Shown here one piece after another: positions 4,243 to 33,854 of a DNA stretch of 64,000 nt (position 1 is its first letter; each line of letters begins with the position of its first letter). The stretch comes from a phage. The stretch lies in sequence record NC_104726.1; one strand, 5' to 3'. Under the pieces are notes generated by a model that saw only the letters and a list, made by a program, of their open reading frames with translations, made no database searches and was not told the origin of the DNA. Position numbers and translations under genes: made by a program.

Positions 4243-4829
4243 TCGGAATTGATGTAGATTTGACACTGGTAGATTCAGGAACAGCATGGTGGGAGTGGTT
4301 GGAGCGTTTGTATGGTCCAGCCAGTAAGACAGTCGCTAAACCTTCTAATGGACTGATGTATTACGATCTGTCAAAGTATTGGCCTGATCGCCCCAAAGAA
4401 AACATCATAGGGCCTTTTGATTTCTGGAGTGACCCATTCCTCTACGACTTTCTTAAGCCTGAAGAGGGGGCTATTGAGGTTATGAAAGATTTGGTGGCTC
4501 GTGGTCACAAGCTTGCATTTATCTCGGTATGCAAGAAAGGTCACCTTGCATCTAAATCAAGGTTCTTAAAGCGTTGGACCAGTGATTTTATGGATCTGGA
4601 CGATCACACCCAGGGTCACGGCTTCTACGCCACACATTTCAAAGGAAATGTGGCTGTAGATGTTATAATTGACGACAGGCATGAATACCTCAACCAATTC
4701 GCTTCACGACCTGAAGTTATTAAAATCCTAAAAGATACGCCTTATGAGCAATTCGAGGAGTTAAAGGTCAGTATTGACTATACCGCCAATAGCTGGTATA
4801 AAATAGGAAAGTTTTTAGAAGGTATTTGA
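4236..4829 (+). CDS. HAD-superfamily 5'(3')-deoxyribonucleotidase-like protein
   Basis: HAD motif I IGIDVDLTLVD at N-terminus and DVIIDDRHEY near C-terminus; start overlaps upstream stop. Confidence 0.5.
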   Translation: MLIGIDVDLTLVDSGTAWWEWLERLYGPASKTVAKPSNGLMYYDLSKYWPDRPKENIIGPFDFWSDPFLYDFLKPEEGAIEVMKDLVARGHKLAFISVCKKGHLASKSRFLKRWTSDFMDLDDHTQGHGFYATHFKGNVAVDVIIDDRHEYLNQFASRPEVIKILKDTPYEQFEELKVSIDYTANSWYKIGKFLEGI

Positions 4830-4830
4830 A

Positions 4831-5031
4831 ATGGGCAGATGTTCTAAAGGTGGCGATCCTGTAGTCAGATACGGAGACTGGCTAGAGGTATATAATCTGG
4901 AGGGAAAGCTAGTGTATGCTTCCAGGATCACCCAGGATATGTGCTCTGATATGTTTAACAGGTACCTTGCATTTAAGGCCAACATAAACCCAGACGAAAT
5001 TTCCAAAATTAAAACAAGGAGAGCTAAATAA
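4831..5031 (+). CDS. hypothetical small protein
   Basis: Track ORF, co-oriented. Confidence 0.3.
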   Translation: MGRCSKGGDPVVRYGDWLEVYNLEGKLVYASRITQDMCSDMFNRYLAFKANINPDEISKIKTRRAK

Positions 5032-6014
5032 TGCTAAAACTGTGCACTGCAAAGATTATTGCTGACAGCATTTCCGAGAAAGGTAAGCGTATAACCACTT
5101 TTGAGCTAGAGTATCCTAGAATCATTCACTCTGAACTCATGACACACCGAGTTTTCAGCAGAAACGCCATGTCCTCTCGTGCAGTACCTGTTAACAAAAT
5201 GCTGCAGCAGGTTGTGGAAAATCCTGCAATGCCAGTTCGTTTTGGTGTAAACCAGCGAGGTATGGAGGATGGTGGCGATCACGATCAGAAGATCCGTGTA
5301 GAGTATACTGATCTTGAGTTCTCTCCTGAAGAGTTCTGGAAAGAAGCTGCCAAAAATGCAGCCTGGCATGCAGAGAAGTTCGCACTTGCTGGTTACCATA
5401 AGCAAGTGTGTAACCGCTTAGTGGAGCCTTTTCAACGCATGAAAACAGTTGTAACAAGCACAGAGTGGAATAATTTTTTCCATCTCCGTTGCTGGCACGA
5501 TGCGGATCCTACGATTCAGATGTTGGCTAATTGTATGTGGGAAGCTCTTGTGAATAGCACTCCTGAAATCCTTAAACCAGGGCAATGGCACACTCCATAT
5601 GTAGAGCACGTTTATTTGGACGGAGAGTTTAACTACGCTGTACTTGACACAGAAGGAAAGCTCTGCATTCTCGATACTAAAGAAGCTCTGTCTATCAGTG
5701 CTAGTTGCTGTGCACAAGTATCTTATCGAAATATTGACAGCACGTTTGAAAAGGCAGACAGTGTGGCTAAAAAATTGATTGGTGGGGATCGTATCCATGC
5801 AAGCCCTTACGAGCACCAGGCAACACCTATGGATCACGATAACGCAATGGAACGTTTAAACTACTACCTGTCTTCATGTGAAATCACACAAGACAGCTGT
5901 GTTTGGCAGGAAGGTGTAACCCATCAAGACCGTGATGGTAAATTCTGGTCTGCCAACTTTTGTGGGTGGGTTCAGCACAGACAACTGCTTAATAACCACT
6001 TCGTGAAATGTTAA
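5031..6014 (+). CDS. ThyX-like (flavin-dependent thymidylate synthase family) protein, divergent
   Basis: THRVFSRNAMSS fits the HR-x7-S part of the ThyX RHR-x7-S signature (first R is T); AAGGAG RBS; sits among nucleotide-metabolism genes. Confidence 0.4.
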   Translation: MLKLCTAKIIADSISEKGKRITTFELEYPRIIHSELMTHRVFSRNAMSSRAVPVNKMLQQVVENPAMPVRFGVNQRGMEDGGDHDQKIRVEYTDLEFSPEEFWKEAAKNAAWHAEKFALAGYHKQVCNRLVEPFQRMKTVVTSTEWNNFFHLRCWHDADPTIQMLANCMWEALVNSTPEILKPGQWHTPYVEHVYLDGEFNYAVLDTEGKLCILDTKEALSISASCCAQVSYRNIDSTFEKADSVAKKLIGGDRIHASPYEHQATPMDHDNAMERLNYYLSSCEITQDSCVWQEGVTHQDRDGKFWSANFCGWVQHRQLLNNHFVKC

Positions 6015-6043
6015 TCCTATCACAGCGATAGGTAACTTTTGTG

Positions 6044-6072
6044 TTGACTAATAGTATCAGATAATCTATAAT
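6044..6072 (+). promoter_or_regulatory. sigma70-like promoter (TTGACT-17-TATAAT)
   Basis: -35 at 6044-6049, -10 at 6067-6072. Confidence 0.55.
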
Positions 6073-6100
6073 AATGGCTCACTTTGTTGGTGAGCCAGAA

Positions 6101-6574
6101 ATGGAGACAGATATGAGTAATGTTATGATTCCTAAAAAGACATTTATTTCAGTTACTTTAGATTTCCTAGCTACCGTCCCTGGGTTTAACGTTCGCACAC
6201 GAAACGGTCTCCGAGCTGCACTCTTTGCCGTAGGGTTTGATTTAAAAAGTATTGATGTTCTTCGTGGAAAAAACGTTCGATGCAAAAATAAGCCAACACA
6301 TTATCGAAAGGCAGATGTATTTGCTGGTGTTATGCGTGCAGACTTTAGATACCCGCAAATGTATAACGGTGTAGATATTTTAGATGTGGATAAAGCACCT
6401 GGTGAGGCAATGCTTGTTCAAGATCTCCCGTATGATATCCCAGTAGAGGATCGTGTTAATGTAAGAAAGTATACAAAACAATCTGAAAAGGCTGAAGATA
6501 TTCATATTGTTGATGAACCTTTCAATTTTGAAGATCTGCATCGCCTGGAAAAATTATTCGGTATTGAAAGCTAA
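6101..6574 (+). CDS. hypothetical protein
   Basis: Track ORF 6074..6574; the ATG at 6074 lies within 2 nt of the -10, so a downstream ATG (6101 or 6113) is the likelier start. Confidence 0.35.
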   Translation: METDMSNVMIPKKTFISVTLDFLATVPGFNVRTRNGLRAALFAVGFDLKSIDVLRGKNVRCKNKPTHYRKADVFAGVMRADFRYPQMYNGVDILDVDKAPGEAMLVQDLPYDIPVEDRVNVRKYTKQSEKAEDIHIVDEPFNFEDLHRLEKLFGIES

Positions 6575-6584
6575 GGTGGTGAAG

Positions 6585-6815
6585 ATGAGTCATAACTCCA
6601 AGTGGAAGGATCTTGGTTTTGCAAGTCGGGCAGAATATGTTGGTTGGCTTTGGTTCAACGGCCTGACAAACGATATTAAAATGTATGATGATGTTTATTA
6701 TGACGAGTATACAGGCAAAATTATAAATATCTCTGTAGAAGAGGATACCTTTATCCAGCAAGATACTGATACCTGCCTTGATAAATACGTTAATGAAGTG
6801 GAGGAAGCAAATTGA
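6585..6815 (+). CDS. hypothetical small protein
   Basis: ATG at 6585 after AAGGTGG; in frame with track ORF 6507..6815. Confidence 0.35.
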   Translation: MSHNSKWKDLGFASRAEYVGWLWFNGLTNDIKMYDDVYYDEYTGKIINISVEEDTFIQQDTDTCLDKYVNEVEEAN

Positions 6816-9127
6816 TCACCAAGGTAATTAAAAGCAACGGATGTGAAGTGGCATTCGATCCAGAACGTTTAAATAAGGCAGCTATTTTCGGTGACGACGG
6901 TAACGGCAATTGGTCACATATTGCACTGGATGCATACAAACGACTGTATGATGGATGCACAACCAAAGAAGTTAACCAAGCTATTATAGACTCCTGTGTT
7001 AGCCGTAAAGACGAAGCACATTCCCGTATGGCTGGTCGTGTTCTTATTGGTCAGATTTATAAAGAGGCTTTTGGAGGGTTTACAAAGATCCCTTCCTTAC
7101 CATCATTTTACAACGACATGGTTGAGAAAGGGTATTGGGAGGATATGGGTTATAGCTTTACCGAGTTAAACACTTTAGGCACTGTTATTGATCACAGTAA
7201 AGATCTCGGTTATGGCTATGCAGTCCTTAAACAGTTTCGCGACAAATACGGGATCAAGGATACTCTTAAAGACACCTTGTTTGAATCTCCTCAGATGATG
7301 TTTATGGGGATAGCAATGGCTGTCATGAAGAATATGCCGAAAGAACGTCGTATCAACGATGTTGTAAAATTATACACTTATCTGTCCGACTTAAAGATCA
7401 ATGCCCCGACACCGTACTTAAACGGTCTGCGCACAGGTAAGACAGGGTATGCATCTTGTTGTGTAATAAAAGCTGACGATACAGCAAAATCTATTGGTGT
7501 GGCACGTGAAGTTGCGTACACAATGACGGTTAACCAAGCAGGTATCGGCTACTACTTATCCTCAAGATCTGCAGGCGATGGTGTTCGTGGTAACACTATT
7601 AAACATATGGGTAAGATTCCATATTATCGAGGTATTGATGCTGGGGTTAAGGAGAACAGACAACAATCACGTGGTGGTTCTGCAACAGTATCATTCCTTG
7701 CACTGGACCCGCAGATTGATGAGCTAATCCGTTTGAGAAACCCTATGACTGTTGCTTCAAAAAGAATCAACACCATGGACTACTCCATCGGTATTAATAG
7801 GTCGTTTATCAACCGTGTGGCTAAGAATTTGGATTGGATGCTTGTTTCTTATAAGCACGCGCCTCAACTGCATGAGGGTATCTTCACCATGTCTATGGAG
7901 GAGTTTGATGCAGAGGTTGATCGTATCGCTAAAGATGACAGTATTCCTAAAACATGGATCCGAGCTAGAGATCTTGCTGTTGAGCTGATCACGCAGCGTA
8001 CCGAGGTGGGAAGACTGTACGTATACTGGACAGATGAGATGAATAGACATACACCTTTTAAAGATGTGATCTATTCAAGTAACCTGTGTGCAGAAATAGC
8101 TCTCCCGACAAAAGGCTATTCAGATATGCGTAATATCTTCAAGCACGATGTTGATGATGGCGAAGTTGCATTGTGCTTCCTGTCATCTCTTGTAGCTGGG
8201 AGGGTTACCCCAGAGGAGTATGAGGATGTTGCATACTACACGGTGCTTATGATTGACAATGTTATGGAAATCATGACATATCCGTATGAAAATATGGAGA
8301 GCACTGTTAAAAAACGCAGATCCATCGGGGTTGGCCTTACCAATGTTGCACATTTTATTGCCAGCCACAAGGTTACTTACGGATCTCCTGAAAGTAAACA
8401 GCTTGTTCACGATCTTGCAGAACTTCACAGCTACAGCTTGCATAAGGCAAGTTTACGGTTGGCAAAAGAGCGTGGTGTCTGCGAGTGGATGCATAAGACA
8501 AAATATCCAGAAGGTTGGTTACCAATCGACACCTATAACAAAGAGGTCGATAGCGTGGTGAAAGATCCTTCTCTTAAACAGGATTGGGAAGGGTTACGTA
8601 AAGAGATCATTGAAAATGGTGGGCTACGTAATAGCGTTCTTGAAGCATATATGCCTAATGAAAGCTCTTCGCTGGCAACAAACACCACTAACGGGGTTTA
8701 TCCTGTCCGTGAGCACATTATCTTTAAAAAGTCGCCACAAGGGCAGGTGCTGTTTATCGTTCCTGACTATGATGAGTTGAAAGAGTATTACACTTCGGCT
8801 TGGGATGTTGATACTAACGACATGATCGATATGTATGCTGTGATTCAAAAATTCACAGGTCAGGCAATCAGCGCGGATTTGTACATAGACTACACCAAGT
8901 TGAAAGATGGTAAAATTTCAATGAAGGAGCAGCTAGGGTACCTTATCCGTGCCACTAAATTCGGAATGAAGACATGGTATTATTTAAACTCTAGGGTTGG
9001 TGCTGGCGACTCCTTGGCAGAGGAACTTCATGCCAAGAAACAGGCTGAAGATGAAACCAGAAAGAACTATCCTTTGAATGCAGATAGTTCAGTTGAAGAT
9101 CAGTATTGCGAAAGTTGTGCACTATAA
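6812..9127 (+). CDS. nrdA: class Ia ribonucleotide reductase alpha subunit
   Basis: N-terminal ATP-cone-like VIKSNGCEVAFDPERL, active-site NLCAEIALPT, C-terminal Cys pair CESC; 771 aa; TTG start after GGAGGAAG. Confidence 0.9.
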   Translation: MITKVIKSNGCEVAFDPERLNKAAIFGDDGNGNWSHIALDAYKRLYDGCTTKEVNQAIIDSCVSRKDEAHSRMAGRVLIGQIYKEAFGGFTKIPSLPSFYNDMVEKGYWEDMGYSFTELNTLGTVIDHSKDLGYGYAVLKQFRDKYGIKDTLKDTLFESPQMMFMGIAMAVMKNMPKERRINDVVKLYTYLSDLKINAPTPYLNGLRTGKTGYASCCVIKADDTAKSIGVAREVAYTMTVNQAGIGYYLSSRSAGDGVRGNTIKHMGKIPYYRGIDAGVKENRQQSRGGSATVSFLALDPQIDELIRLRNPMTVASKRINTMDYSIGINRSFINRVAKNLDWMLVSYKHAPQLHEGIFTMSMEEFDAEVDRIAKDDSIPKTWIRARDLAVELITQRTEVGRLYVYWTDEMNRHTPFKDVIYSSNLCAEIALPTKGYSDMRNIFKHDVDDGEVALCFLSSLVAGRVTPEEYEDVAYYTVLMIDNVMEIMTYPYENMESTVKKRRSIGVGLTNVAHFIASHKVTYGSPESKQLVHDLAELHSYSLHKASLRLAKERGVCEWMHKTKYPEGWLPIDTYNKEVDSVVKDPSLKQDWEGLRKEIIENGGLRNSVLEAYMPNESSSLATNTTNGVYPVREHIIFKKSPQGQVLFIVPDYDELKEYYTSAWDVDTNDMIDMYAVIQKFTGQAISADLYIDYTKLKDGKISMKEQLGYLIRATKFGMKTWYYLNSRVGAGDSLAEELHAKKQAEDETRKNYPLNADSSVEDQYCESCAL

Positions 9128-30493: not shown

Positions 30494-30613
30494 AGCACCG
30501 AGCCCACACAGGTTCCTCATGCTAAAGCATGGCCTGAAGAGGCAAACGTGCATAATTCCTGTGCATTGTGACGTATAAAACCCGTTCACACTCTCATTTC
30601 CAGAGGAGATTTC

Positions 30614-30829
30614 ATGAAGATAGAAATATTTGGTGGAGCTGACAACACTCGTGGCCTGATTTACCTTGAATTCGATGAATCATACCTGCCAGAGGTGTTA
30701 AATATAGGCTCTGTTGCTGAGGCTTTGGGAGTAAACCCTAAAGAACTCCACTCTTGTGCTGAGATCGATGGTTGGGAAGAGACCATGAACATTGATTTCA
30801 GTGAAGTAGAGGATGAACCGCTTGACTGA
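30614..30829 (+). CDS. small acidic protein
   Basis: GAGGAG RBS; last + strand gene before the non-coding region. Confidence 0.4.
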   Translation: MKIEIFGGADNTRGLIYLEFDESYLPEVLNIGSVAEALGVNPKELHSCAEIDGWEETMNIDFSEVEDEPLD

Positions 30830-31670
30830 CACACAATTAGCTGCCCGGCTAAAGTGCTGGAAGCACCTATAACACATCTTTCAACTAAATTTCCTACCAC
30901 CACAATCACTTACCTCCCACACATGACTGTTTGCTTGTTTAGTGAGCAGTCATGCCTTGACATTCTTGCCTATCCTGATAAAATTAAGTTCTTCTCTTTT
31001 CTTTTACCGAGTAATTCGGGTTTTCTGTTCTCTTCGGTTTGAAGGGGTATGGAGATACACCTGAGTGAACAGGGTGAACAACCGAACATTTGGCTATGGC
31101 ATTAGCATGGCGAAGCGGACGGGTGACGAAAGAGGGGCCGGAGGACACCAGTCACTGCCATATGATATATGGGTGATAACCTGAAGAGTCTGAATAAGTG
31201 TTTAAGTACCAGTCAGAGGAAAAGGTGAATGGTAGCCGAAGGGGGAGGGGGGTTTCTTGTATCTTTAATTTGTATATTATGTATACACTCGTAAACCAAT
31301 CTCATCTGAATCTGTTTACCACACAAAGTAGATAGGGACAAATATCACCTATTAAACTTGAATTATTTATAGAAAATACCACAACACCACTTAAGTCTTT
31401 GATTTTACACACAAATCCTACAGATATTCAACCTCTATATTTAACATATTCATAACATATTCCATACTCTACCTGTCTGATCAATTTACCCAACCACATC
31501 CTCCATATTTTCCCTGTCTGTACTACCCCTGCCCCGCCGGGAGTCCCGTCATATCTGGCTTTCCAGCAAATATCACACCCACAAATATCATTACCTGAAG
31601 AGGGTTTCATCCCATAATACCTGCCTTACCTGAAGAGCGCTTCATATACCCCGTAAATTTTTTAATTGAC

Positions 31671-31700
31671 CCCCTCCCCGCCGCCGGAGGGGTCGGCTTT
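31671..31700 (+). terminator. GC-rich hairpin, terminator-like
   Basis: CCCCTCC-CCGCCGCC-GGAGGGG followed by TCGGCTTTT. Confidence 0.3.
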
Positions 31701-32289
31701 TCCCACACAGGCCTGAAGAGTCAGCCAGAAATATCTGAACAGGTCCAGTTATACCACGATTTTGACCTGACCGACAGGAGTGCTGCCAGGCGGACGAAAT
31801 GGGAATCATTCTCATTCTTATAACAATTCTCAAATATCGAGGCAGTGAGGCAAATTAATAGGTGAGGCCGTTCACACAATGGCACAACATTTGCAACCTA
31901 TCTTGTGGGAGTGAATGAGAATACCTATCATTGTGAGAATAGTTATCATTACGGGCAATTTAACATAATACCCATTATGCGCACCACTGGCGATCCATAC
32001 AGGGATTGATAACATGAGTTACCGTTTACGCACATAACAATTATATTTCTTACTATTTGTGTGGGATATAGTTAGCAGCCAATAGATTAGATATTAACCT
32101 GCGGACTTCTGACCGTCCAGACGTCTAAACGCCCACACAACAAGGGTTATACATACACAACTGAATGTAAACAGGGCCGCAAAAATGCTACCATACCAGT
32201 TTGTAAATTTTCATGCAGCACTTGACAAAGAGGAGAAAAACTTGTCTGACACCTTATACACTTTCGACACAATAACGACTGTTATTATT

Positions 32290-32640
32290 TCATGTTTCAC
32301 TGTTCACGTATAGATTGTTCCCGCATAGACTGTTTACGCCTGGATAGTTTACACCTTAACTGTTTACACAGATAGGATAAGCCATGACATTCGTTTGCAT
32401 GAAAACAATTAGCAAGTTAACAATTAACAAGTTAATAATATATGACATAATATAAAAGCAGGGCAACTATTAGCAGATCTATAGTTGCCTTGCTTGTTAT
32501 GTCATGATTAACTGAATACAAGGCAACTATGATCTGATTAATAGATTGCAGACAAACTATCACGGGGGTGATGGTTACTGCTTTTATATTATGTCGCGAC
32601 TCCGTCGCGCCATGCCATTCGTTTGCATAGTTGCCTTATT
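32290..32640. repeat. iteron and nested-palindrome cluster in the non-coding region
   Basis: TGTTTAC-like iterons every 14-16 bp (32294-32368); GGCAACTAT/ATAGTTGCC inverted pairs; 18 bp inverted repeat 32444-32461 vs 32579-32596; direct repeat CCATTCGTTTGCAT at 32388 and 32614. Confidence 0.5.
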
Positions 32641-33242
32641 GTTACGAATAAAACAATTGCATTGTTAATGATTTCTTATCTTTCTCTTAGTCATCTAATG
32701 ATTACAGTCAGTATAGTTATGTACAGTAAACATTAGACGACTAAAGATTTCTCTGTTTATTATAACTTACCATTACAATTTCGGACTGTTTACCAAGAAT
32801 GTTGACACATAAGCTGATTTATGTTATGCAGTTTACACGAATAATTATTTTATGCAGGTATTGACTATTCCGTTATTCTATGGTTGGAATAAATACTTAG
32901 CAGACTATAGAATGGTGAGCGTACGTAAATTCTGAGATCTGGCGGCTATAGTTATACTCGATTTTTCACGTAGAACACGCTTTTGTGGTTGTGTAAGTGT
33001 ATGACTTATAAAGATTTTTAGTTGTTGACAAGACACTGAAGATATGCATCAGGTTAAATTTTGTGCAATAGCTGCATTACGTGCACTTTTGGGAGAGAAA
33101 ACGGGTAAAAATGGGCCTGCTACCACACAATGAAAGATTATGCAATAGTTATTTTCCATGTATATTTGTACAGTATGTGGAATTGATGGCTAGTCAATTA
33201 TTCCACTTGCCAGGTAGGGCCGTTTATGGTAGGAGAAGAGCA

Positions 33243-33270
33243 GACAAAAAGAAAGGGGCCTTTAAGCCCC
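33243..33270 (-). terminator. rho-independent terminator for the leftward gene array
   Basis: On the minus strand GGGGC...GCCCC hairpin followed by TTTCTTTTTGT, just downstream of the stop at 33291. Confidence 0.5.
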
Positions 33271-33290
33271 TTGATAATTCAGTTAAGAAA

Positions 33291-33710
33291 TTATAATGAT
33301 TCGTATATTTCAAAAATCCGATTTGCCAGGTCGTTACGGTAGCGGAATTTTTCCTCACGTTTGATCATCAGATCTTTAAAGCCATATTCTTTAAGCACTT
33401 CATTAACTTTATGGCGGCATACCTTCATATTATCTTGAGCGTCACCAATAAACTTGTTGCTGTGGTGCATTGCTTTAATTTCTTCTTCCAGGACCAGGGC
33501 AACCACCCGGACCGGATCAAGCTGGTAGGCGGTAACATCGATGCGGCATTGTAGACGGCTTTTAACGTCTGCCACCGGATATACTGCAACCTCTTCCCCG
33601 TCAACATTGACAATAACTAGTTTACCATCGATTTCGAATCCTTTCGCCGCCGGACCGTGACAAAAAGCGTTATCAAAGCTATATGCCGGATTATTAGATT
33701 TAATGTTCAT
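33291..33710 (-). CDS. hypothetical protein
   Basis: Track ORF; last gene of the minus-strand array. Confidence 0.4.
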   Translation of the reverse strand: MNIKSNNPAYSFDNAFCHGPAAKGFEIDGKLVIVNVDGEEVAVYPVADVKSRLQCRIDVTAYQLDPVRVVALVLEEEIKAMHHSNKFIGDAQDNMKVCRHKVNEVLKEYGFKDLMIKREEKFRYRNDLANRIFEIYESL

Positions 33711-33854
33711 GGTGTTTTTACCTCTTAGTTAATTTTCTTACAACTTCCCTTCAAAAAGAATATAGCAAAACTGCCGATCCTTGTCAACCAAGGATAGCAT
33801 AATTTTTATGTGATCAAGGGGCTTTATTGCCCCCTGATCGTGCAACTTGTTGTA

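Follow-up and report, generated by a model that had tools for sequence, protein, structure and literature searches.

The window analysed here, a 64,000-nucleotide stretch of DNA, comes from a Vequintavirus (rV5-like) genome. Both gene arrays converge on an ORF-poor gap of 2.46 kb (30830-33290) which, judging from the records of related phages, would contain the ends of the virion DNA. The genome type is that of a 137-kb myovirus. The segment of interest is right-hand subterminal non-coding DNA and lies just inside one physical chromosome end. Its features are collected in Table 1.

Table 1. Features of the subterminal region, in window coordinates; a slash marks an edge of the terminal repeat.
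Feature	Coordinates	Strand	Remarks
CCTGAAGAG copy 1 (GGCCTGAAGAGGC)	30533..30541	+	intergenic patch of the early + strand operon; local identity 0.98
14-bp stem-loop abutting the -35 hexamer	30922..30954	+	-19.1 kcal/mol, z = -5.66, 0/200 shuffles
Predicted sigma-70 promoter, TTGACA-16 nt-TGaTAAAAT	30957..30984	+	extended -10; 11/12 matches
Ultra-conserved non-coding unit, candidate RNA of ~260 nt	30991..31252	+	pi 0.0094
Hairpin CCATAT-GAT-ATATGG	31158..31172	+	loop varies, unlike most of the unit
GGTGATAACCTGAAGAG, word copy 2, inside the conserved unit	31173..31188	+	closest to the terminus-proximal GGTGATGGCCTGAAGAG of A7_1
GGGGGAGGGGGG (G5AG6, 31241-31252) plus TTTCTT	31241..31258	+	3' edge of the unit; length-variable in relatives
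AT-rich, then C-rich, G-poor spacer	31257..31590	+	GC 31%, G 7.6%; largest C-G excess of the window
Two AAATATC words	31568..31589	+	CCCACAAATATC common to A7_1/LTH01; further copies at 31340, 31729, 31832
CCTGAAGAG copies 3 and 4 (TTACCTGAAGAGNNNTTCAT twice, 35 nt apart)	31594..31637	+	not a tandem array
C-rich word (also 31525-31539) with GGAGGGG and CTTTT, the "GC hairpin" of the earlier note	31669..31703	+	not a conserved hairpin
CCTGAAGAG copy 5 (GGCCTGAAGAG)	31712..31720	+	ends 68 nt before the repeat boundary
Junction word TGCTGCCA/GGC (written whole, TGCTGCCAGGC)	31781..31791	+	left repeat edge between 31788 and 31789 (Gotham, HdK5)
Direct terminal repeat of the virion DNA	31789..32246		458 bp here, ends ...GAGGAGAAAAACTTGTC/; mapped via the Gotham and HdK5 records

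Phage Gotham carries 459-bp terminal repeats with a specific start in all virions (PMC7471380). The annotated repeats of Gotham are identical to each other and map onto window positions 31789-32246; in the HdK5 record the two ends, again 459 bp and identical, fall at the very same positions. UPEC06 belongs to a sister clade (A7_1, LTH01 and UPEC06) in which blastn finds no similarity to this gap; its ends, 462 bp long and identical, start at the window's junction word, TGCTGCCA/GGC, and the other edge of its repeat, ...GAGAAGAGAGTTTTGTC/, has a similar ...TTTGTC/ finish. An 11-mer cut word shared by two 2.5-kb sequences is by itself within chance; it carries weight here because it occurs exactly at ends that were mapped independently. 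Gotham, HdK5 and UPEC06 thus all have the identical ends and fixed boundaries of direct terminal repeats of the T7 type. By homology, the ends of the window's own phage probably lie at 31789 and 32246. Among further clades, the junction block of the sister clade is present only in Septuagintavirus-like phages. The authors of the rV5 genome described skew changes at 104425-105475, corresponding to about 31241-32291 in the window.

The stretch from 30991 to 31252, here called the unit, is the best-conserved sequence in 12 kb. Its pi of 0.0094 is 5-10 times lower than that of the flanks (0.045-0.10), and it falls in the top 8 of 423 windows in a comparison with a contig at 85.6% median identity. 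The edges of conservation are sharp in L004, L022 and L032. In the last of these the upstream gene is about 12% different, 30900-31251 has about six changes, and divergence returns directly after the G-tract; conservation breaks at this same point in LL12. On the other side, the conserved block reaches about 55 bp upstream of the -35 hexamer, beyond which the spacer 30830-30921 shows ordinary conservation (pi 0.052). Near-uniform conservation over 330 bp would also fit a DNA platform densely bound by protein.

On the 5' side of the block lie a stem-loop and a promoter match. The outer 8 bp of the stem-loop are a perfect DNA palindrome (CATGACTG/CAGTCATG) and its inner pairs include three G-U; the whole is nearly invariant among relatives, and it may serve as the 3'-terminal hairpin of the operon upstream or else as an operator. 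The adjoining hexamers, at a 16-nt spacing, have the sequence of a sigma-70 promoter and are kept in relatives. In L004 the spacer and the +1 region are altered, with both hexamers unchanged. The extended -10 is identical to that of rV5 promoter P074 and the architecture is that of rV5 early promoters; the published rV5 promoter list does not include it. The earlier note saw no clear terminator after the last + strand gene, which is right for a canonical intrinsic terminator, since a promoter/terminator scan calls none after 30829 and Table S4 of the rV5 study lists none; the note missed the stem-loop and the promoter.

Base composition in the window is extreme on both sides of 31252, with strong strand asymmetry. 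A pyrimidine leader (30991-31040, 76% Y) is followed by a purine-rich body. This body, 31041-31252, has a purine content of 67.5% (G 36%, C 15%, GC 51%), the maximum of all 212-nt windows in 64 kb, in agreement with the purine- and GC-rich stretch of the earlier note. It is also the segment of the window with the most G over C, and leads into a G-cluster (GGGGGAGGGGGG at 31241-31252) and then an abrupt stretch of 31% GC. The sister clade has G5AG5AG5 and then a T-run on the same strand and at the same place, 14 nt inside its repeat. The 3' end of the unit (31241-31258) does not have the form of an intrinsic terminator: no C-rich partner is found nearby, the only predicted helix is a long-range one between the G-tract and the 5' end at 30991-31001, and the T-run is not kept in LL12 and L032.

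For the unit as a whole, predicted folding is no better than that of shuffled sequences (z = -1.34; -1.85 to +0.46 for its parts). The variable sites lie in predicted loops. Among 20 sequences there are three one-sided compatible changes, all of them G-U/Watson-Crick switches valid only in + strand RNA, three single-sequence substitutions that disrupt predicted pairs, and no double compensation, at a diversity too low to give covariation any power. In the small hairpin at 31158-31172, GA>AG and A>G occur at 31164-31165; most sequences preserve the stem, one pair of which is lost in each of two single sequences (31163, 31171). Neither folding statistics nor covariation, which has no power here, supports a defined RNA structure. 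The earlier note had proposed a structured 3' UTR or small RNA, to be checked by covariation and an Rfam scan, among other means. For 30991-31252 it is sensible to think of a non-coding RNA: the segment is non-coding, extremely constrained and directly behind a near-consensus promoter, and its edges of conservation match a predicted transcript start and the G-tract. That such an RNA is structured draws no support from the folding and covariation results.

The region shows no protein-coding conservation. Its short ORFs, which the earlier note took to lack ribosome-binding sites, include one of 39 aa (31065-31184) that does have GGAG 10 nt upstream; it does not behave as coding, with about nine non-synonymous against two synonymous substitutions in relatives and premature stops in L020 (TAT>TAG) and L011 (TGG>TAG). 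A 45-aa ORF crosses the length-variable G-tract, where indels shift its frame, and a 60-aa minus-strand ORF within 31257-31590 is ruled out by 1-nt indels in relatives. Conservation runs on beyond every one of these ORFs. A protein-coding gene in the region is rejected on these grounds.

In the distant mode of the phage database search, matches to the unit occur only in Vequintavirus, at 96.7% identity or more. IMG/VR has only two contigs with the unit, and a metagenome scan returned four true copies, one of them usefully divergent. No homolog of the unit was found among 5,426 E. coli genomes; the single PLSDB match is to a phage genome that had been entered as a plasmid, and two matches to GTDB genomes are set aside as chance (about 1.4 expected). 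The Rfam 15 scan (including pRNA, 6S, tmRNA, hammerhead, GOLLD/ROOL, HEARO and riboswitches) gave no relevant family: nothing in the 64 kb reached a gathering threshold, and the four matches at E<=10 over 30700-33400 are chance-level eukaryotic miRNA or lncRNA models, none within the unit. ARAGORN called no tRNA or tmRNA gene in the window. No antisense target of the unit stands above chance within the 64-kb window. A literature search found no transcriptomics or ncRNA description for Vequintavirus.

The word CCTGAAGAG occurs nine times in the window as compared with 0.54 +/- 0.64 expected, a count that 0 of 100 shuffles reach. Five + strand copies fall within 30533-31720, at 30533, 31180, 31594, 31629 and 31712; the last four are those of the earlier note, which put the first of them at 31179. 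The other four (4458, 5325, 12216 and 61363) are inside long ORFs, three of them on the + strand, where the reading frame translates them as Pro-Glu-Glu. The anomaly therefore consists in the five non-coding copies. All five are retained in relatives, with the 9-mer invariant and the flanks free. Even the neighbouring copies 3 and 4 have only 20 of 35 nt in common, and TRF finds no array at 31591-31660; a ToxI-like type III antitoxin, which has tandem repeats of about 34-45 nt, is rejected. A hammerhead ribozyme, suggested by CUGAAGAG as a CUGANGA core, is likewise rejected: the flanks have no GAAA box and no stem II, and Rfam gave no hammerhead match at gathering thresholds over 64 kb or in the permissive scan of 30700-33400.

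The word is shared with the sister clade: A7_1 has the same word as at copy 5, 91 nt ahead of its own cut word. The copy inside the unit, GGTGATAACCTGAAGAG at 31173-31188, provides the sole nhmmer alignment of the unit to that clade (E = 0.12), and apart from this word no counterpart of the unit, and no k-mer excess, was found in A7_1, LTH01 or phAPEC8. Two of the copies stand 600 and 1250 bp away from the cut, a long distance for a terminase site.

Beyond the G-tract the sequence changes character. G makes up 7.6% of 31257-31520, and the strongest C-over-G stretch of the window, 31430-31530, lies beside the G-tract. By its composition the spacer 31257-31590 would be rut-like as RNA and easily melted as DNA. 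Comparison of 31300-31900 with the A7_1 gap gives 41 same-strand 8-mers in common, where 13.9 +/- 4.9 are expected (0/500), and 16 on the opposite strand; LTH01 shows a similar same-strand excess, phAPEC8 none. The common words include CCCACAAATATC, CCTRAAGAG and the cut word, in broadly similar order. Since the sister clade has these words and the cut site without the unit, the unit is not required for end formation of this kind. A match to the T7 class II pause heptamer, ATCTGTT at 31310, was set aside as a probable chance 7-mer of no relevance to the host polymerase.

The best explanation, which we hold with slightly less than even confidence, is a conserved promoter-driven unit combined with a cis-acting word array, serving end processing or replication at the fixed-end Vequintavirus terminus. 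The stem-loop at 30922-30954 would close the upstream early operon. Host RNA polymerase would start at the extended -10 sigma-70 promoter and produce an RNA of about 260 nt, making this an autonomous unit, with a mature 3' end at the G5AG6 tract able to pair with the extreme 5' end. Read-through past the G-tract would give about 400 nt of untranslated, C-rich and G-poor RNA, where Rho termination is expected. The region 31300-31788 would act in cis as DNA, its same-orientation words (CCTGAAGAG three times, AAATATC, and the C-rich word twice) leading up to the cut word TGCTGCCA/GGC at the left edge of the 458-bp repeat. From its position and the comparison between clades, this array may be the recognition region for the packaging or end-cutting machinery, whose proteins would bind the words. 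The unit points at the junction, has its own GGTGATRRCCTGAAGAG copy, and has a counterpart to its G-tract beside the cut site in the sister clade. These features suggest that the unit's RNA, or its transcription as such, may help to process the ends or to replicate the concatemer junction instead of regulating genes in general, and the unit and the array would be functionally linked. The proposed role resembles that of the right-end promoter of phage T7. A more specific form is decidedly doubtful: a large terminase-type myovirus genus would depend on the nearly invariant ~260-nt host-polymerase RNA, which, itself or through a co-transcriptional R-loop at G5AG6, would assist as a cofactor when the terminal repeat is cut or duplicated, or would prime replication at the junction. 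If true, this would add an RNA component to the formation of direct-terminal-repeat ends, known so far only as phi29 pRNA and T7 polymerase pausing.

The alternative that fares best, unlikely but deserving serious attention, is a trans-acting early small RNA, a decoy, sponge or mimic directed at a host or defence system, with the terminal position incidental or serving only to have it expressed first, should that end be the one to enter first. Its own strong promoter, the sharp edges of conservation, and conservation over the full length with loops largely included, which suggests specific partner contacts, all suit such an RNA, and so do two motifs, a GGAGG resembling an SD within the G-tract and a CU leader resembling an anti-SD. 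There is precedent for a functional non-coding RNA expressed by an rV5-like phage (PMC3475682), and the unit is absent from the sister clade, a pattern common among accessory anti-host factors. Such an accessory factor is, however, not usually the most conserved sequence of a genus. The unit resembles no E. coli chromosome, plasmid or Rfam sequence, has no antisense target in the 64-kb window, lacks the repeat structure of type III antitoxins, and carries the word associated with the terminus.

A transcription-primed replication origin, with a persistent RNA-DNA hybrid anchored at G5AG6 and a 3' end priming into the AT-rich DNA, is improbable. It would make sense of the order of strong promoter, G-over-C segment, G-cluster and 31% GC stretch, of a conservation edge exactly at the G-tract, of rV5 skew changes at about 31241-32291, and of G-tracts at the same place and strand in the sister clade. 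The skew change is nevertheless accounted for by gene orientation, and replication from here would meet transcription of the converging gene arrays head-on. An R-loop needs G-richness, not 99% identity over 260 nt, and only one loose DnaA-box match and one match to the IHF consensus were found.

It is also quite improbable that 30900-31256 is a DNA-only element, a protein-binding platform such as a packaging or partition-like site or an operator, with an incidental or regulatory promoter match and no functional RNA. Conservation of the 55 bp or so upstream of the -35, including the perfect 8-bp palindrome, speaks for this, as do the non-significant RNA folding and the presence of a word whose behaviour elsewhere, close to the cut, is that of a DNA word. 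Binding platforms usually consist of conserved patches and free spacers, whereas identity here is uniform over 330 bp, and retained hexamers around a variable spacer are the signature of a promoter in use. The inner stem of 30922-30954 and the three tolerated substitutions give valid pairs only in + strand RNA, and composition is strongly strand-asymmetric.

The reading of the earlier note, in which early promoters feed read-through transcription of a structured 3' UTR or small RNA, here taken to end at the hairpin at 31671-31700, we consider very unlikely. Some read-through is to be expected where no canonical intrinsic terminator follows the last + strand gene; the strong stem-loop and dedicated promoter, however, stand between that gene and the segment, which makes read-through unnecessary as a source of transcripts, and the intervening 30830-30921 is ordinary in conservation (pi 0.052). 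The proposed hairpin does exist in this genome (31669-31703, about -20 kcal/mol). In relatives GGAGGGG is mostly GGAGAGG with no compensating change, leaving the stem mismatched in most of them; only four T follow, the promoter/terminator scan does not call it, and it is rejected as an intrinsic terminator. C-rich, G-poor untranslated RNA would moreover invite Rho termination long before 31700. The repeats and hairpin that the note joined into one RNA are better described as belonging to the DNA word array that directly precedes the boundary of the terminal repeat. Finally, a small protein gene, whether the 39-aa ORF with its SD-like GGAG or another of the short ORFs, for which several records annotate hypothetical proteins here, has almost no chance against the excess of non-synonymous changes, the stops in L020 and L011, the indels in the 45-aa and 60-aa ORFs, and conservation continuing outside every ORF.

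Vequintaviruses are among the E. coli phages most often isolated and used in therapy. Since the rV5 genome was published, no explanation has been given for their 2.5-kb "non-coding" box, and the genome still appears in many records as circularly permuted. With the terminal repeat located in this box, a map of cis-acting signals, including cut words conserved between two clades and the adjoining word array, becomes available for engineering, correct linearisation of genomes and packaging studies. Over at least 12 kb no sequence is more constrained than the unit, which matches no known RNA family; if expressed, it would be a new phage ncRNA, and its position would suggest a role in end processing or replication.

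Several known systems offer partial parallels. R-loop primer systems include ColE1 RNA II, the T4 origins (oriF/oriG), the T7 promoter-origins and mitochondrial LSP-CSB II, where CSB II consists of a G-run, an A, a second G-run and then T's. In sequence, the present region has the same combination of promoter, G-rich transcript, G-run/A/G-run with T's, and AT-rich DNA, and its motif GAAGGGGGAGGGGGGTTTC resembles the CSB II transcript. There is no homology to these systems, gene orientation here runs against an origin, and constraint is far above what an R-loop would need. The pRNA of phi29 (Rfam RF00044) is likewise a small ncRNA gene with its own promoter near the end of a phage with defined ends; phi29, however, is a protein-primed podovirus without a small terminase, and no Rfam match was found here. 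In PhiTE, pseudo-ToxI is an ncRNA of tandem 36-nt repeats that mimics an antitoxin and is expressed during infection by this rV5-like phage (PMC3475682). It too is a non-coding, repeat-containing locus of an rV5-related myovirus, although the present locus has a dispersed 9-mer in place of a tandem array and no relation to toxIN.

Arrays of the lambda cosB type are terminase small-subunit binding sites beside a cut site. As in cosB, several copies of a short word are found in a non-coding stretch of about 200 bp on one side of a sequence-specific cut, and between related phages the spacers drift around words that stay conserved. Unlike cosB, the cut here corresponds to blunt-mapped repeat boundaries of a direct-terminal-repeat genome rather than to cohesive ends. 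The word measures 9 bp, there are two more copies at distances of 0.6 and 1.25 kb, of which one lies within the unit, and binding is putative.

Pausing of RNA polymerase at the concatemer junction brings in the terminase in T7 and T3 (PMC3276506), where a hairpin intermediate is also formed beside the repeat (PMC4281155). T7 has its own RNA polymerase and a class II pause signal, whereas the promoter here is of the host sigma-70 type, and the 260-nt ultra-conserved sequence has no T7 counterpart. The likeness, known from sequence alone, is in the fixed ends, the short direct terminal repeat, the specific non-coding sequences flanking the cut sites, and, as with phiOR, a strong promoter that is aimed at the repeat from a few hundred bp within the right end.

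Positions 30600-33400 matched 121 phage records (90-99% identity), almost all of them from Escherichia Vequintavirus (rV5-like myoviruses). Nineteen records titled 'Campylobacter phage' (host C. jejuni), several of odd length (75-143 kb), hold E. coli Vequintavirus sequence matching this stretch at 94-99% identity and are probably mislabelled or contaminated assemblies; the PLSDB 'plasmid' CP057073.1 (137,565 bp) is a Vequintavirus genome. No convincing ORF occurs across the 2.46 kb from 30830 to 33290 (the gap), inside which lies the region, 30840-31760, that an earlier note had proposed to be a structured 3' UTR or small RNA. Two gene arrays converge here, since a small + strand array ends at 30829 and a - strand array at 33291. 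The rV5 genome paper draws the gap merely as a grey box labelled "non-coding"; its authors had anticipated bidirectional terminators separating genes 163 and 164 and reported none, and the sole entry here in their terminator table is t164, on the - strand at window 33272-33253 (PMC3606486). With this terminator the - array is properly terminated, unlike the + array.

Because many deposited genomes are linearised within the gap, genome ends were examined. Gotham is reported to have 459-bp terminal repeats with a single specific start in all virions (PMC7471380). Its two annotated repeat regions are mutually identical and map to window 31789-32246; in HdK5, from a different laboratory, the two 459-bp ends are likewise identical and fall at these same positions. 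Boundary words are unchanged in the window: TGCTGCCA meets GGCGGACG at 31788/31789, and GAGGAGAAAAACTTGTC ends at 32246. We infer by homology that the gap contains the virion DNA ends of the window's own phage. With the repeat mapped through Gotham and HdK5, the right virion end would run from + genes through the region of the earlier note to the repeat, and the left end from the repeat through 32247-33290 to the - genes. The deposited sequence of UPEC06, third member of a sister clade with A7_1 and LTH01, has identical ends of 462 bp; turned to window orientation, the UPEC06 repeat starts with GGCACGG, directly after CACTGCTGCCA, and finishes with AGTTTTGTC. Both boundary words are thus conserved between the rV5 clade and the sister clade. 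The UPEC06 record, MW250786.1, is labelled 'partial genome', yet its identical ends make it a complete DTR genome, and the small 'hypothetical proteins' annotated across its repeat and junction are probably not genes. Gotham, HdK5 and UPEC06 together point to fixed ends and repeats of ~460 bp, contrary to descriptions of Vequintavirus genomes as circularly permuted and packaged by headful (the rV5 paper, PMC3606486, and a 2026 paper), and many records would thus have been opened at arbitrary points. The 34-bp 'repeat_region' annotated for phage naswa is apparently the 18-nt direct repeat within the terminal repeat (see table).

Features of the gap, its borders and the corresponding gaps of other genera (window positions unless stated)
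Feature	Position	Strand	Remarks
Direct repeat, 18 nt, TGAGAATACCTATCATTG x1.9	31916-31950		within terminal repeat
Hypervariable stretch	32247-32450		directly after repeat; pi 0.26, many indels
Branched near-perfect palindrome, 150 nt	32444-32593	both	left subterminal region, ~200 bp past right edge of terminal repeat
Canonical intrinsic terminator (rV5 t164)	33253-33272	-	directly after stop codon of 139-aa gene
Near-consensus extended -10 promoter (rV5 P164)	33759-33787	-	upstream of 139-aa gene
150-nt fold, phAPEC8 (L014)	~1061-1210 of reverse complement of 4701-6700		-76.5 kcal/mol
150-nt fold, LTH01 (L016)	~761-910 of reverse complement of 4701-6900		-59.8 kcal/mol

Up to the left edge of the repeat, 31300-31788 holds an array of short same-strand words. 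A7_1 and LTH01, from another Vequintavirinae clade, have the same flanking 139-aa gene and a similar gap, with no blastn similarity to the gap of the window. Taken in window orientation, they have 41 same-strand 8-mers in common with 31300-31900, against 13.9 +/- 4.9 expected (0/500); phAPEC8 gives no 8-mer excess with that interval. A7_1 and LTH01 share with the window, in broadly similar order, CCCACAAATATC (twice), CCTRAAGAG (two or three copies) and TGCTGCCAGGC; in each clade GGCCTGAAGAG precedes the left boundary word by 60-91 nt. The shared boundary words together with this upstream word are the strongest functional pointer in the analysis. In the sister clade G5AG5AG5 followed by a T-run begins 14 nt inside the repeat; the rV5 clade has a comparable G5AG6-TTTC 535 nt upstream, where the conserved unit described below has its 3' edge.

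All features listed in the earlier note exist in the window. Its positions for CCTGAAGAG hold at 31594, 31629 and 31712, and that at 31179 is actually 31180; a fifth copy lies at 30533, and all five are on the + strand. The window has nine copies against 0.54 expected. Four of the nine fall within long ORFs, three of these being on the + strand and in frame as Pro-Glu-Glu codons; the real anomaly is thus the five non-coding copies, all inside 1.2 kb. All five are retained in relatives, with invariance limited to the 9-mer itself, and those at 31594-31720 are best read as putative DNA words of an end-recognition region, not RNA parts. The GC hairpin at 31669-31692 is present in this genome, but its stem is mismatched in most relatives (GGAGAGG) without compensation, and we do not count it as a terminator; its C-rich half reappears as a word at 31525. 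Inserts of 18-70 nt occur at 31671, immediately ahead of the junction-proximal C-rich word, in L004, L010, L013, L020 and other relatives, and two relatives (L012, L032) have 15 nt inserted, TCCTGCTTTGCAGGT, which form a small hairpin, at 30836, right after the last + gene. These indel hot spots lie on either side of the conserved unit.

That unit, 30922-31252, includes a candidate RNA of ~260 nt (30991-31252). The purine-rich segment noted earlier is confirmed: purines make up 67.5% of 31041-31252 (G 36%, C 15%), the highest share of all 212-nt windows in 64 kb, with GGGGGAGGGGGG, the G-tract, at 31241-31252 and the window's strongest C-over-G stretch directly 3'. In a 13-genome alignment, 30900-31300 is the best-conserved part of 4 kb, above the flanking genes, and nucleotide diversity is 0.0094 at 30991-31257 vs 0.045-0.10 in adjoining segments. 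A promoter scan found TTGACA-16 nt-TGaTAAAAT at 30957-30984 (11/12 matches), with the same extended -10 as rV5 promoter P074; it is not on the rV5 list because those authors scanned only upstream of genes. The block has sharp edges. Divergent contig L004 is altered in the promoter spacer, at 30985 and at 30989-30990, and retains both hexamers and everything from 30991 on; in LL12 and metagenomic contig L032 similarity is lost immediately 3' of the G-tract. L032 differs by ~12% in the upstream gene vs only about six changes in 30900-31251, and in comparison with L031 (median identity 85.6% across 12 kb) the top eight of 423 250-nt windows all lie within the unit. The one clearly significant structure is a stem-loop of 14 bp (30922-30954; -19.1 kcal/mol, z = -5.7) immediately 5' of the -35. 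A DNA palindrome forms its outer 8 bp, and G-U pairs are required further in; it may serve as an operator or as the early operon's 3' hairpin.

The unit matched no Rfam family, tRNA, E. coli chromosome or true plasmid; pattern matches in bacterial MAGs were chance. In the minimum-energy fold the first 11 nt (30991-31001) pair with the G-tract, closing the molecule. Most of the few substitutions lie in predicted loops, such as that of CCATAT-GAT-ATATGG (31164-31165), and three are G-U/Watson-Crick switches workable only in + strand RNA. Three others, in one sequence each, disrupt predicted pairs, and no double compensation occurs; diversity is low, and folding is no better than in shuffled sequence (whole z -1.34, parts -1.85 to +0.46). 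Evidence for a structured RNA is weak. The observation of the earlier note is confirmed and its interpretation partly supported.

The main alternative to a role at the genome end is a trans-acting early RNA, a decoy or mimic, of the sort expressed by the rV5-like phage PhiTE (PMC3475682), although the unit lacks the tandem repeat, host similarity and any antisense target within the window. The composition would also fit an R-loop primed origin, with which gene orientation and the degree of sequence constraint disagree. Conservation reaching upstream and weak folding fit a platform acting as DNA only, against the promoter signature and the strand-specific pairs. A 3' UTR made by read-through from early promoters is poorly supported, as are small-protein genes; the unit is non-coding, the 39-aa ORF having mostly non-synonymous changes plus two premature stops and the 45-aa ORF spanning the length-variable G-tract.

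Beyond the repeat, the palindrome folds stably on both strands (+, -68.2 kcal/mol, z = -10.9; -, -59.2, z = -11.2) and is therefore DNA-level. Made of AAGGCAACTAT words and a small hairpin, AACTATCAC-GGGG-GTGATGGTT, it ranks second in conservation among the islands of the gap (pi 0.024) and is retained in 13/13 relatives at -60 to -76 kcal/mol. It may act as an origin, or as a hairpin that primes duplication of the repeat. The hypervariable stretch contains about five tandem-like 15-nt units, ACTGTT(T/C)AC..ATAG (32299-32369), and AACAATTAACAAGTT x2.4 (32404-32439); CTGTTTAC occurs six times in the window, five of them in the gap, among these the copy at 31312, just after the unit. These repeats are iteron-like. 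In other genera, non-coding gaps adjoining the same 139-aa gene also contain very stable 150-nt folds, that of LTH01 being immediately upstream of the junction word; the phAPEC8 genes past the gap stay on the same strand.

The region thus reads as non-coding DNA just inside the right end of a genome bearing direct terminal repeats, and it holds a previously unannotated, nearly invariant non-coding unit with a predicted promoter, plus a repeat-boundary word array; neither was found described in the searchable literature. The sister clade lacks a counterpart of the unit, and the sole alignment there pairs the unit's GGTGATAACCTGAAGAG with the terminus-proximal GGTGATGGCCTGAAGAG of A7_1 (nhmmer E = 0.12); the unit thus carries the terminus word as well as a G-tract, and would be transcribed toward the junction. 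The 400 nt downstream are C-rich, G-poor and untranslated, the type of sequence on which Rho loads, so Rho would be expected to halt read-through short of the repeat, with trimming of the RNA as far as the G-tract. In T7, the promoters at the right and left ends double as secondary origins. In T7 and T3, a polymerase pause at the concatemer junction brings in terminase, and next to the repeat a hairpin intermediate arises (PMC3276506, PMC4281155); because of this analogy we favour a reading in which the RNA of the unit, or its transcription, might serve junction processing or replication.
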